Shown one piece after another: positions 15,801-27,800 of a stretch of DNA of 64,000 nucleotides. Made by a program: the position numbers. How positions within the stretch are numbered: the first letter of the stretch is position 1; each line of letters starts with the position of its first letter. Origin of the DNA: an uncultured Bacteroidota bacterium (lineage in GTDB: Bacteria; CLD3; SB21); assembly GCA_964602985.1 (NCBI GenBank), contig CAZRTJ010000017.1:26075-90074 (forward strand), written 5' to 3'.

Positions 15801-18800
15801 ATCCAGTTCAGCCAGCGAGAGTGGATGCGGGAGGATAGTTTCGGCCCAATCATGGCGCCGATCAGAGATCCCACCACGACGTGAGCCGGCAGGTCCATTC
15901 GTATACTACCGGAAAAAAAGAAAACGACACTGCCCATGAGCGCAGTGAATCCGATGACGAGCGTGCTGGTCGCCGCAGCGGCCTTGAAGGGAATCTTGCC
16001 AATCTTGGTCATCACCGGCACATTGACCAATCCGCCTCCCACTCCGAGAAGTCCCCCAAACAATCCGGCCACGGCGGTTGCGGCTATTTGCAGGGCGGGC
16101 TGTTGAATGACGTACCGTACAGGAGACTGGTCCATCGTCTCACGAAACTCTCCAAGCAACCAGCGTCCGGATTGCGCTTCTGTGGGCGTCACGACTTCAT
16201 CGGTCGTCTGTCCCGGTCGCATCAGGAAGTATGTCGGCACAAACAGAAACACAGCAAAGAGCAGATAGAGTGTTCCAGAAGGCGTCTGCACGGCGATGTG
16301 GCTGCCCAAGAACGCACCGGTGAGACTGCCCACCACAAGGACATATCCGAGTGTCTGATGCACCCAGCCTTTCAACGTGTAGATAGCGGTTGCCATGGTC
16401 GATGTCGAAACGATGGACATCAGGCTTGCAAAAATCGCATCCTTGATATCGTATCCCATCAGGAGCGTGAGGGACGGAACGATGATCACTCCTCCGCCGA
16501 TCCCCACCATGCTGCCGACGACACTCGCCACGAAGCCGATACCGCCGGCAATCACGAACTCCGTCATCGGCCGGACAAAATCATTTGGTAGCGGGTCTTC
16601 TCGCTCAGAACTTTGCGGGCCTCTGCCACCACTCGATCCTCACGCAGCGCAGCGGCGATTCGGCCATGGTTTCCCAGGGCGCGGGAGATCATCTCCAGTT
16701 CGATCGTTCGCTTGATCGTCTGCGCGTTCCGATGGAATTCGCCTTCGCGGTGTGAACGCACCGTTTTTCGAAGGGCGCTCAATTGTCGTCCGAAATCATC
16801 CGGGTAATGACCGGTGCGGGCAAGGGTGTCTACTTCCGAGAGCCTTTGCTCGATGCGACTCACGTACTCAAAGCGCGTGGTGTCCACCAAGGTACGAAAG
16901 GCATTCAGATCAGAATCGGATATCTCGTACGCCGAATCGATCGATAACGCATGCTGTGTGAGGAACTGATAATGACGGGTCACAAAATCAAAGATCAAAC
17001 CGCGTCGAAGAATCTCCGAAACGTACTCGGTTGGCGGCTCTTCCTGGACGACCACATCCGGTTGGATCCCTCCATTGCCGTAGACCTTCCGACCCGAGGC
17101 GGTTCGATACGTGGTGGTATCAGCGGTGGAGTCCAGTCTGAGCATTTGTTGACTCTGACCAAACGTTTCGTTCTCCGTGTTATCGATCAAGGCGCCTCTT
17201 CGGACGTGCGACCCGCGATAGTTGGCTTTCTGGATACATCGTCCACTGGGTGTGTAGTATTTGGCCGTCGTGATCTTCAGGACGGAGTTGCGTTCCTGAA
17301 GCGGGTAGACGGATTGGACAAGACCTTTGCCAAACGTCGGCATCCCGATGATCACCGCTCGATCCAGATCCTGCAACGCACCGGCCAGAACTTCGCTCGC
17401 ACTCGCGCTGCCTTCGTCAACGAGAACAGCCAACGGCAATTCCGGATATCGTGGGTCGCGGGTCGCCTGATAAACCCTATTTGACTCGGCCGTCCTGCCG
17501 CGTGTCACGGTGATGATGGATCCCCGACGAATGAACTGATTGGCAATATCGATCCCGACTTCCAGCAAGCCTCCAGGGTTTCCCCTCAGGTCGATGATCA
17601 GTGATTTCATCCCCCGCCTCTGCAGATCCTCCATGGCCCCCGCAAATTCGACTTCGGCGTTCTTGGAGAACTTCGTCAGCTTGATGAATCCAACGCCGTC
17701 GGCGATCATCCCGGCATAGGAGATATTCTCAACGTGTACCGTTTCCCGAATGAGTTGAAATTCCAGCGTGCGCTCCAGACCGGGTCGTACGATCGTCAGG
17801 TGTACCTTGGTTCCAGGGTCCCCCCGGACGAGGTTGGACATCTCCTGATAGTTGAGTGTACCCAGCGTCTGTCCATCCACTGCCACGATACGGTCGCCAG
17901 GTAAAATCCCTGCGCGTCGTCCGGGGGATTGATCGGCCGTCGAAATGACAGTCAGGTAGCCGTCCTTGACTCCGATGGATACTCCGATTCCCCCGTATTT
18001 GCCCAGCATGAGCAGATCCAGTTCACTGGTTTCACTGCCTTCGTAATAGACCGTGTACGGGTCCAAGTCGGCGAGGAGTCCATCAATGCCGGCACGGATG
18101 AATTCGCCAGGACGAATCTCATCGACATATTTTTCCGTGACATTCTTGTAAATGTCGCCAAAGAGGCGGAGTCCCTTCTTGACTTCCTGATAGTAATCCC
18201 CGTCACCAGTCCAGGCAACGCTGCCCGCCAGAACGATTCCTGCGATCGTCACCAGGAGCCATTTGTGGAACGACTGGGGTTGCATGGTCTGCCTTTCTAT
18301 TTCGAGTTGCCCGACTTGGGCTCCAGTAAAATAAACCGAACGGCGTCAAATGCAATATGGCCTCGCTTCTGACCCGTCGCATTATCGAGCGTCACGACCA
18401 CGGAGTCGTCTCGATCAAATTCATACGTGCCGATGTCGACAAAAGCGTCCGTGAACTTGTTCTGATTGACCTTCACTTCCCGCACGCCGGCTTTGCTCAC
18501 AACCCGGTACGTGGCCATCGCGTTGGCAAATTTCTTGGGAATGTGAACTTGAACTCGGTATCGCCCGGATTGCGTCAACTTGGGTTTCCAGACAGCCTCG
18601 ATTGTTTTGTTGCGAACCGTGACGGGTCCGTACCGGTAGCTGTGCCAATAGCCCCGGTATTCCTTCCACGTTCCGGGGATATTGGGTTCGTCGACGGTAA
18701 CGATATGGGGCGGATCGTAGCGATTGTCGGACAAAAACGTCTGACCGTTGTAGATCGACTGAATGACGGTCGAATCGTTTTCGAACACCGGTTCTGGTGG

Positions 18801-24800: not shown

Positions 24801-27800
24801 TTGTGAGTGTGTGCAAAATGCAGACCTTCGCACACCTGCAGCATCACTTCGATCACAAACTCGATGGACTGGAGGGACTCCCAGTTGGTGGGCTGTTCGG
24901 CAATAATCTCCTCGAGCGTTTGTCCTTCCACGTATTCCATGGCGATGTAGGACGTATCCCCTTCCGTTCCCACGTCATAGACGGTAACAATGTTGGGATG
25001 CGACAGCTTGCCCGCGAATTGAGCTTCCATGACGAAACGCTGTTTGAACTCATTTCTCTGCGTTTCGGAAACGGTATCGGTGAGACTGAGGGTCTTGATC
25101 GCGACAGTACGATCGATGATCTCGTCCTGTGCTTTGTAGACAATTCCCATCGCCCCGCGTCCGAGGACACTGACGACACGAAATCTTCCAAAACGCTCGG
25201 GAACGGATTCACTCATGGTATTGATTCTTCGTAGACCTTGTCCGCCGGAAGGACATCATATGACGAAATGATTTTGACTTGCGGAGAGGGTGGGATTCGA
25301 ACCCACGATACACCAAAGCGTATACTGATTTTCGAGACCAGCTCCTTCAACCACTCGGACACCTCTCCGAAAAAGCCGATCAATAAAACATTTTTTGGCC
25401 AAAAATGCAATGTTTCGACATGTCTCATTGAATATCCCGCGGAAACCTTATACCTTGCGCTCCATGAAATTGACTCCCCGGGTCCGGGTATCCCTGTTCA
25501 CGATTTTCTACGTAATGGCATTGGCGATTCTTCTGGACCAGATCATTCTTCCCCTGTACGTCAACGGGTCCGGCGAAATCCGAGTCCCGGATTTGGTCGG
25601 TCAGAGCGAGGAGTCCGGGATGCGCATTTTGGAAAAAACCGGTTTGACGGGTCAGGTGAAATATCGATTTGAACCGAAACAGCCCGATCGCACGATATTG
25701 ACTCAGAGCCCGGAGGGTGGTGCGATGGTGAAGGCGGGCCGCACGGTTCGTCTGATTGTGAGCCAGAGAGACCAAATCGTGGCGGTGCCATCGGTGAGGC
25801 TGACTACGCTCCGAGATGCCACCGCTTCGCTGGAGGCAGCCGGATTGCAGGTCGGAAATATCCGTGAAGAAGTGACCAGCGAATTCCCAGCCGGGATTGT
25901 GTTACAGCAATCTGTGTCCCACCCTGAAATGGCGAAGAGGGGCACATACGTCGACCTCGTTATTTCAGTGGCGGCAAGTCGCACGTCGGCGGTGGTGCCC
26001 TTTCTTGTTGGATCGACATTGGCCCAGGCAAAAGAAAGAATCATTGACGCCGGCCTCAGTTTGGGCGTGGTGTCGAAGGCGCAGAAAGCCGATCTCCTTC
26101 CCGGTACGGTGGTCGCGCAGACGCCGGACTCGGGCAGCGTTGTCCTGCCGCAGGCGAAGATCGACCTTGTCATCAGCACGGTCGACCGTTAATGACAACG
26201 TCCTCAGCCAGTTTAACCCCTTCTCTGTACAATCATCCTCAAGAAGGCTACGAGTGATGGAATGGACGGAGGCTGCGGTGGTCGCATTGTTGGTCGCTTA
26301 TCTGGCGCTGTGGTGGTACAGTCAAAGGATTTCCTTTGAGACTGGCTTCTTGTTTTTCTTGTCGACCAAATTTACCCTGGACAGTCTGTGGGATTTCAAG
26401 TTTGGGGGCATTTCCCCTCTACACATTGTCGGCACGGTCTTCTGTTTATGGCTGTTGTTTCATGTCGTGATTCGCTGGTCGGCATGTCAACGACAGATGT
26501 TCTTTCGCCCTGTCATGGCTGTGTGCATCGCATGCGCTGTGTCATCTGTCTGGGGGTTGCTGTTGAATACGTTTGACGTGTTTCCCTTGGTCGCGTCCCG
26601 ATTGACATTTGGGAGTATTCTGTCGTGGAATGCTCGCGTGCTTTGTCTGGTCCTTCCCTTGATCGTCGTTCCGGTTCTCATGCCAGATTCATTCCGGCGT
26701 GTTCTAGTCGCGCTGGCTGTCTCCACGTTCGTCCCCAGCGCGGTGGGGATTGTCCAGGTGTACGACATAGCCCTCGCGGCGGAGCGCATCGAACACCTCC
26801 ACCGGACTCTTGTGAAGATGCGTGTGCGAGGGCCTTATTCTGACGCAAATACGATGGCCCTCGTTATGATGAGTGCAAGCTTGGGATCTGCGTATCTCGT
26901 CGTGATCCTCCGCCGTTTGTGGCATCGACTGGCGGTGGCTTCCTATTCCATTCTGACATCGGTACTCCTTCTGAGCACGTACAGCAGGACCTTCTTGGTG
27001 ACTTATGCAGTGGCAATGTTTCTGATGGCATGGACTGCCGAACGTCGTTCTGTTTGGGCGATGATGGCTGTGGGTATGACGTTATTGCTAGCCGGCCTGC
27101 CCTTTCTCGTTGAACGCTTTTCGAAGGAAATTGATTTTCTCCACAAGGGAGGCCCTGACCTCGGAAAACTTGCGGCCGGACGTTTCAATCTGTGGGTCGA
27201 GGCTTGGGACCATTTCTGGAAGCTGGATCCGATCTCGAAGACGGTAGGGTCGGGTGGATCATATGGGTCGCACAACCAGTACATTGCTTGGATTTTGCGG
27301 CACGGGTGGCTCGGGATGTTGCCCTTCTTGTACTTACTCTCTCGGTGTGTTGCTGGTGTGAGACTATCATCAGCCATTCATCGCCCGTACGGAATTGCGA
27401 TAATCCTTACGACGATTGTTCTTTCCAATTTGTTTGCACACCCGTTGGAAAATACTTCGTATGCAATTGCGACCGCGACCGTGGTTGGCCTTGCGGGTGG
27501 GAGTGCGCGATGAGATTGGCGCAGGGCGTGTCTCGAATTCCGACAACGTATGTGTGGGCCATCCTGGCAACGCTCGTGGCTTTGGGACTGAGTGTCATTT
27601 CGCCCTTGCTGTCGGGCGTATTCCTGATCGTAATAGCATTTGTTTTTGTCGCACGGCGTAATGCGGCGAATGCCGTCCTTTTCCTGTATGTGGCAAAGCC
27701 CATCATCGACGCCGCGTGGGATCTCCGAATTCCCGGAGTCGGTTTGAATTTTCTTCAAATCACCGGCGTCATGTATCCTATCTTTGTCTTGACGATTGTT

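Follow-up and report, generated by a model that had tools for sequence, protein, structure and literature searches.

The locus studied here raises the question of whether a tight row of genes for envelope hydrolases, headed by the gene of a transmembrane kinase, forms a functional unit, and what such a unit would do. It lies in a 64,000-nucleotide (nt) stretch of DNA from an uncultured Bacteroidota bacterium (contig CAZRTJ010000017.1), hereafter called the window, whose positions are used throughout. Four genes on the minus strand encode a Ser/Thr kinase with a PEGA ectodomain (23060..25216), a gluzincin-type protein with seven transmembrane helices and a TPR domain (20900..23056), a protein that joins a BNR/Sortilin-type β-propeller, an immunoglobulin (Ig)-like domain, an M23 peptidase domain and Golvesin_C (18297..20903), and a CtpA-type S41 protease with a PDZ domain (16564..18285). 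A fifth gene, divergent on the plus strand, encodes a membrane-anchored protein with three PASTA repeats (25464..26192). The initial annotation of this DNA had read all five as one wall-remodelling unit ending at the S41 gene, with the kinase and the PASTA protein forming a 'split PknB' and the proteases as possible kinase substrates. Our analysis suggests a narrower reading, to which we assign a probability of about 0.45. The block of hydrolase genes would serve a lineage-restricted, periplasm-facing remodelling of peptidoglycan together with its proteolytic control, as a variant of the LbcA–CtpA–MepM and NlpI–Prc–MepS logic.

The genes and domains were as annotated initially, and the corrections concern start codons and one spacing. 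The open reading frame (ORF) coordinates agreed with the annotated distance of 3 nt between the stop codon of the kinase gene and the TTG start codon of the gluzincin/TPR gene. The overlap of the M23 gene with the gluzincin/TPR gene was also real. It amounted to 31 nt when counted from the longest ORF, which starts at 20930; the start is likely ATG 20903, because an ATGA stop/start overlap is found there with an AAGGAG Shine–Dalgarno box ahead of it, and the two genes then probably share only the ATGA. The gap between the M23 and S41 genes was 11 nt, not 12 nt. For the kinase, ATG 25216 was preferred, because the start at residue 23 that was called automatically for the matching public contig (L001; L numbers are our locus numbers), which gives 696 residues, cuts the Gly-rich loop. 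The minus-strand string continued past the S41 gene, which overlaps by 4 nt the gene of a TauE/SafE-family permease (15737..16567; PF01925 is listed for the gene on L001). Two small ORFs, a methyltransferase gene, mutL and miaA came next, all with overlaps or with gaps of at most 3 nt.

Related loci were found with a 10-member alignment of the gluzincin protein, and the window proteins were compared with 160 fetched loci by tblastn. The order HExxH–M23–S41–TauE, in which HExxH stands for the gluzincin/TPR gene, was present in all seven related species genomes (L003–L006 and L008–L010), so the gene order on which the initial annotation depended is kept in relatives. Identities to the window proteins in these seven genomes were 26–35% for the gluzincin/TPR protein and 47–64% for the S41 protease. 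The same order was found on a metagenome contig similar to L008 (L092); the other matches listed in the metagenome scan were mostly distant relatives, and L092 alone joined the clade that carries the cluster. Upstream of the block the loci varied. An intact PEGA kinase gene was found there in five of the seven relatives and in the window. It directly adjoined the gluzincin/TPR gene in the window and L003, was followed by a CMD-family gene (111 residues) and a lipoprotein gene (about 285 residues) in L004, L006 and L009, and by the lipoprotein gene alone in L010. The two loci that lacked the kinase differed from each other: L005 carried an HD-domain gene, with ORFs of 110 and 303 residues in the positions of the CMD-family and lipoprotein genes, and L008 carried a chaperone-like protein of the CesT/TY-Chap1 type (208 residues), whose N-terminus is rich in Lys and Ala.

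The S41 protein matched Peptidase_S41 (3.4e-51) and PDZ and carried an N-terminal signal or anchor sequence. It scored 289.3 bits against TIGR00225 (cut-off 218.6), which places it in the prc subfamily, and the Ser/Lys dyad motifs GSASASE and TFGKG were kept in 8/8 S41 proteins. Among its nearest solved structures was Pseudomonas aeruginosa CtpA (7rpq, E = 4.6e-65), which it matched far better than Escherichia coli Prc (about 1e-26). Its score against the CtpA equivalog model NF045588 was 233 bits where 625 are needed; judged by its nearest solved structure, it is a CtpA-like protein and not a CtpA equivalog. Its adjacency to the TauE gene was kept in all seven loci of the clade and in four Ignavibacteria-type loci (L011, L013, L024 and L027); at L043, tblastn matched the S41 gene only, and an unannotated membrane ORF comes next. 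The S41–TauE pair, often with a 4-nt overlap, is thus conserved well beyond the clade with the cluster. The best NCBIfam match of the permease was the TauE-like C-terminal half of MamO, a protease–TauE fusion.

The propeller–M23 protein is predicted to be secreted, with an N-terminal signal or anchor. It matched M23 (PF01551, 83.6 bits, 1.1e-23) and Golvesin_C (63.1 bits, 3.6e-17), as well as Sortilin-Vps10 and PSII_BNR. Its full architecture is rare: a search of 1.84 billion cluster representatives gave 18 matches at E ≤ 1e-30 and only three or four proteins of full length. Conserved in the M23 domain were HxH (as HVH), LDLN, the Asp and the catalytic His. The HxxxD motif reads RYALD, and an invariant His lies five residues upstream of it in 8/8 orthologues; an insertion of 8–9 residues follows the Asp. 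The domain aligned both with LytM-domain regulators and with active M23 endopeptidases. The protein could accordingly be either a LytM-type regulator or an enzyme whose metal site is unusual.

Pfam recognized only TPR in the gluzincin/TPR protein of the window. An alignment of 35 homologues showed that H321, E322 and H325 (HEAVH, 321–325) and E345 are invariant, which is the gluzincin signature, and 9/35 family members, the window protein not among them, matched PF13485 (Peptidase_MA_2). With its HExxH, its downstream Glu and its domain fold, the protein belongs to the gluzincins of the Peptidase_MA_2 type (clan MA(E)). An AlphaFold2 model (pLDDT 92) consisted of a gluzincin fold and a TPR solenoid, with seven helices of transmembrane length at the N-terminus. 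When residues 215–470 were modelled alone, the best matches were catalytic domains of M9 collagenase and M1 aminopeptidase (TMq 0.52–0.59). Searched as a whole, the model had its best PDB match in E. coli BepA, which combines an M48 protease domain with TPRs, at low TM-scores (0.18/0.28). The protein does not fall into the BepA/M48 family, as it has no M48 Pfam match, seven transmembrane helices and only this weak whole-model fold match. Three loops were strongly basic (KKQVRLR, SRRRRS and SRERLLR). A topology with the N-terminus inside and the C-terminus outside is proposed, because only then do all three share one side of the membrane. In this model the gluzincin and TPR domains would be periplasmic, as would an invariant GPIYDE loop of the family.

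Beyond the clade, the gluzincin family was found in at least 333 GTDB species genomes, labelled Bacteroidota, Ignavibacteria, Chlorobi, Rhodothermales, Dadabacteria, Myxococcota and Thermodesulfobacteriota. None of its matches or neighbours carried a functional name, and the literature searched contained no paper on the family. Over 160 loci, the commonest neighbour was murA, directly upstream in 32, followed by a GT9 gene downstream in 29 and lspA downstream in 23. The murA context points to peptidoglycan, and the GT9 and lspA contexts point to the cell envelope more broadly. In Ignavibacteria-type genomes, about 8 kb separated S41–TauE from murA–HExxH, which lay downstream. At seven Dadabacteria/Thermodesulfobacteriota-type loci (L012, L014, L016–L019 and L028), genes for an ECF sigma factor, an RskA-type anti-sigma factor and CorA were upstream and lspA was directly downstream. 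Kinases were also found near distant family members. Three loci (L104 6787–12193, L134 743–6142 and L139 165–5564) encode a Hanks kinase with a PSII_BNR/Sortilin (BNR/Ycf48-like) propeller as C-terminus, directly followed by murA–HExxH, and L032 has a TPR-repeat kinase upstream of murA and, further on, HExxH. These four kinases are non-orthologous to the PEGA kinase of the window. The propeller type on the first three is the same as that fused to M23 in the window clade. It is tempting to see in the whole family an unrecognized membrane-embedded regulator that keeps the making and the cutting of peptidoglycan in balance, possibly controlled by Hanks kinases with interchangeable ectodomains (PEGA, BNR propeller or TPR), but we regard this wider proposal as quite improbable.

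For the window clade itself, a mechanism can be proposed from known systems. In P. aeruginosa, CtpA and the TPR lipoprotein LbcA degrade the M23 hydrolases MepM and PA4404, and in E. coli NlpI–Prc degrades MepS (PMC6050968). The functional domains of the three hydrolase-type proteins of the window are likewise predicted to face the periplasm. By analogy, the CtpA-type S41 protease would limit or process the M23 wall hydrolase, and the TPR solenoid of the gluzincin protein would be its docking or activating partner, as LbcA and NlpI are for CtpA and Prc. The PEGA ectodomain of the kinase could read an envelope cue. The kinase itself would act on cytoplasmic targets, which might include at most the short cytoplasmic loops of the gluzincin protein, and not on the periplasmic proteases.

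The kinase matched Pkinase (PF00069, 179.7 bits, 9.6e-53) and, in five stretches, PEGA (125.1 bits, 1e-36). With one transmembrane helix (residues 316–334), its kinase domain is predicted to be cytoplasmic and its five PEGA domains extracytoplasmic. The window protein had every motif of a Hanks-type Ser/Thr kinase, namely the Gly-rich loop GRGAMGIV, VAIK with its Lys, HRDIKPAN, DFG and APE, and HRD, DFG and [AS]PE were kept in every cluster-linked orthologue. Since the motifs are intact, the protein is not a pseudokinase, as the initial annotation had required; by its motifs it is an active transmembrane Hanks kinase. It scored 304.7 bits against NF033483 (Stk1/PknB), over the kinase domain only and below the 450-bit cut-off, and is therefore not a member of that family. 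The combination of kinase and PEGA was very common, being found in most of the 120 best database matches, and no functional study of PEGA kinases was found in the literature searched. A neighbour-joining tree (no support values) split the cluster-adjacent kinases into two paralogue types, type A in the window and L003 and type B in L004, L006, L009 and L010. Both types occurred in tandem at L009 (449–5495), and a type-A-like PEGA kinase paralogue (P0079) was found outside the cluster in the same genome as L006. The two types fit an old local duplication, as far as the tree tells. A second contig of the L006 genome (L090) carried two further PEGA kinases in unrelated contexts, which gives that genome at least three.

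The PASTA protein matched PF03793 in three stretches (120.6 bits, 2.6e-35), above the Pfam cut-off, and had one N-terminal transmembrane helix, a cytoplasmic tail of only a few residues and no other domain. The absence of a kinase or transpeptidase domain was thus correctly annotated. Its homologues were PASTA-only proteins of 242–247 residues, and its start is probably ATG 25464, which gives 242 residues as in the homologues, and not TTG 25395. The conserved length also ruled out a fragment of a disrupted penicillin-binding protein or kinase gene; the ORF belongs to a stand-alone family. No functional study of stand-alone PASTA proteins was found in the literature searched. The closest solved structures were the PASTA ectodomains of Staphylococcus aureus and Mycobacterium tuberculosis PknB (PknB/Stk1), and the protein matched the PASTA half of NF033483 with 118.9 bits.

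The gene heads a polysaccharide operon (25464–34007, plus strand) with genes for a Wzy_C-like membrane protein, a 578-residue protein without Pfam match, a GDSL/AlgX-like protein, GT4, GT2 and an asparagine synthase (AsnB), and this order was kept in L003 and L083. The operon context suggests that the PASTA protein works with a glycan polymerase or ligase and not with a kinase. Divergence from the kinase gene was confined to the window and L003, the relative nearest to it. In L008 and L092, the PASTA gene lay between ruvC-like and glycosyltransferase-like genes, as judged by eye, with no kinase nearby, and it was absent from the locus in L004, L006, L009 and L010. Distant PASTA-only genes were found in the order def–fmt–rsmB–PASTA–rpe (L085 8001–8732, L087 8001–8741 and L091 6001–6768), and a Telmatobacter PASTA gene lay about 5 kb from def–fmt–rsmB. 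The slot between rsmB and rpe is the position of the PASTA kinase gene prkC in the Firmicutes operon, which hints that kinase-less PASTA proteins in two-membrane bacteria derive from or replace a PknB-type gene.

These data have to be weighed against other explanations of the locus. The integrated unit of the initial annotation, with PEGA kinase and PASTA protein as a split PknB sensor and with the three proteases as targets of phosphorylation by the kinase, is highly improbable and the least likely of the readings. The kinase domain and the PASTA protein do match the N- and C-terminal halves of NF033483, and their divergent arrangement is kept in L003; at the remaining cluster loci, by contrast, the PASTA gene is absent or unlinked to a kinase gene, and the family has contexts of its own in the glycan operon and in rsmB–PASTA–rpe. 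A split PknB is unsupported, since the PASTA gene is absent from the four other kinase-bearing loci, the protein has essentially no cytoplasmic part and its partners are not kinases, and the PASTA protein is probably not part of the protease unit. The proposal that the proteases are kinase substrates fares no better. Direct phosphorylation of soluble proteases is implausible, because the S41, M23 and gluzincin catalytic domains are predicted to lie across the membrane from the kinase domain. Another explanation takes BepA as the guide: the gluzincin/TPR protein would serve quality control in outer-membrane, lipoprotein or lipopolysaccharide biogenesis, and M23 and S41 would be secondary. BepA as top match of the whole model, the family members that precede lspA (23 loci) or a GT9 heptosyltransferase-like gene (29 loci), and the ECF sigma and anti-sigma genes near the gluzincin gene in Dadabacteria-type loci are in keeping with it. 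We consider it unlikely, as BepA is matched with low TM-scores, the isolated catalytic domain is of the M9 and M1 kind and unlike M48, BepA is soluble whereas the gluzincin protein has seven transmembrane helices, and the commonest neighbour, murA, is a gene of peptidoglycan synthesis.

The third explanation is synteny without functional coupling, that is, ordinary envelope genes in a compact, slowly rearranging superoperon. The tight spacing, with overlaps or gaps of at most 12 nt, continues through TauE, two small ORFs, the methyltransferase gene, mutL and miaA, and the relatives that share the block also keep a small ORF, the methyltransferase gene and mutL in synteny downstream of it. The block thus belongs to a longer conserved string with unrelated housekeeping genes, and its boundary does not lie at the S41 gene, where the initial annotation had placed it; the conserved part also takes in TauE and housekeeping genes, and the kinase is its variable member. 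In L004, L006 and L010, the kinase gene is preceded by co-directional ORFs that resemble scpA, scpB, rluB and cmk (by eye only), and the kinase and PASTA associations vary between loci. On the other hand, HExxH–M23–S41–TauE remains unbroken even where the flank ahead of it differs and is occupied by other genes, S41/TauE and HExxH are found within about 8 kb, in another order, in Ignavibacteria-type genomes, and a chance neighbourhood of three periplasmic hydrolases with a known precedent for S41 protease, TPR protein and M23 protein is unlikely. Synteny alone appears somewhat unlikely to us.

Proteolytic control of a wall hydrolase remains our preferred reading, and the following points weigh against it. 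The conservation of the block may partly be frozen synteny, because the tight string runs on into the methyltransferase gene, mutL and miaA. Independent observations are few, since only about eight genomes have the block in full and very few proteins share the M23 architecture. The M23 domain could be a non-catalytic LytM-type regulator, because the canonical HxxxD register is missing. The proposed TPR partner is a domain of an inner-membrane protease and not an outer-membrane lipoprotein, and binding and cleavage among the S41, TPR and M23 proteins are proposed from gene adjacency and precedent. With respect to the kinase, its gene is missing in L005 and L008 and separated from the gluzincin gene by one or two genes in four loci, PEGA kinases are multi-copy in the lineage, and an upstream kinase outside the clade was seen at only 4 of about 150 loci, a frequency close to that expected by chance. 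Inspection of the cytoplasmic loops of the gluzincin protein showed no conserved Ser/Thr.

The surroundings of the block were ordinary. The genes annotated around it are housekeeping genes (ClpB, IF-2, MutL and MiaA), and the GC content was flat over the window. The idea of a mobile or defence island was set aside on these grounds, with no search aimed at mobility or defence genes made. A scan for promoters and terminators with the sigma-70 consensus, which is probably ill-suited to the lineage of this bacterium, found none above shuffle expectation and no intergenic terminator inside the string. ARAGORN placed a tRNA-Ser(CGA) gene (25281..25368, minus strand; Rfam tRNA, 56.9 bits) upstream of the kinase gene on the same strand, and the Rfam scan gave two tRNAs and no other match. 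Elsewhere in the window, an ORF of 1136 residues without Pfam match (6515–9925, minus strand) adjoins the gene of an NHL-repeat protein (9925–10863), and an unrelated protein of 1049 residues (47446–50595, plus strand) combines PD40 β-propeller repeats with a sub-threshold Peptidase_MA_2 match (27.6 bits; cut-off 32.4).

Bacteria must restrain their own wall-cutting enzymes, and Proteobacteria do so with a tail-specific protease and a TPR lipoprotein adaptor. If the proposed control by S41 and TPR partner is true, the same logic would have arisen in the Bacteroidota group, with the adaptor fused to a membrane metalloprotease, the hydrolase gene as its neighbour and a possible input from a transmembrane kinase. 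The function of the widespread seven-transmembrane gluzincin/TPR family, of PEGA kinases and of stand-alone PASTA proteins in two-membrane bacteria would then become accessible for the first time. The evidence is genomic context from about eight uncultured genomes, and what it offers in practice at present is a hypothesis that can be tested.

How far the locus is new follows from a comparison with known systems. The initial annotation had called the unit not described as such; this stands in that the literature searched contained no paper on the cluster, but the combination of S41, TPR and M23 is itself known (PMC6050968). Every component superfamily is known as well. What is new is that the TPR domain is fused to a seven-transmembrane gluzincin, that the hydrolase has a propeller–M23–Golvesin_C architecture, that the genes are tightly linked and that a kinase gene is a frequent neighbour. 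The kinase resembles PknB, PrkC and Stk1 in having a cytoplasmic kinase domain, one transmembrane helix and an ectodomain of repeats, and Stk1 is the best NCBIfam match of its kinase domain; in contrast to them, its ectodomain consists of five PEGA domains, and PASTA is encoded by a separate gene that is not co-conserved. The gluzincin/TPR protein shares with BepA (YfgC) an HExxH zinc protease domain followed by a periplasmic TPR solenoid. It differs in its catalytic fold, which is a gluzincin of the M9/M1/Peptidase_MA_2 type and not M48, and in its seven N-terminal transmembrane helices and conserved periplasmic GPIYDE loop, and the structural match is weak.

The M23 domain has the HxH, the catalytic His and the Asp in common with the LytM regulators EnvC, NlpD and DipM and with the M23 endopeptidases LytM, ShyA and MepM, but its first zinc-ligand His is off the HxxxD register and 8–9 residues are inserted after the Asp. 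The likeness to LbcA–CtpA–MepM and NlpI–Prc–MepS lies in the combination of a periplasmic S41 protease, a TPR protein and an M23/LytM-domain protein. Unlike in those systems, the three components are adjacent genes in the window. The TPR partner is not an outer-membrane lipoprotein but the C-terminus of a seven-transmembrane gluzincin, the S41 protease continues at its C-terminus into an additional region of about 200 residues, and in the M23 protein a β-propeller, Golvesin_C and an Ig-like domain accompany an M23 domain whose HxxxD motif is non-canonical.

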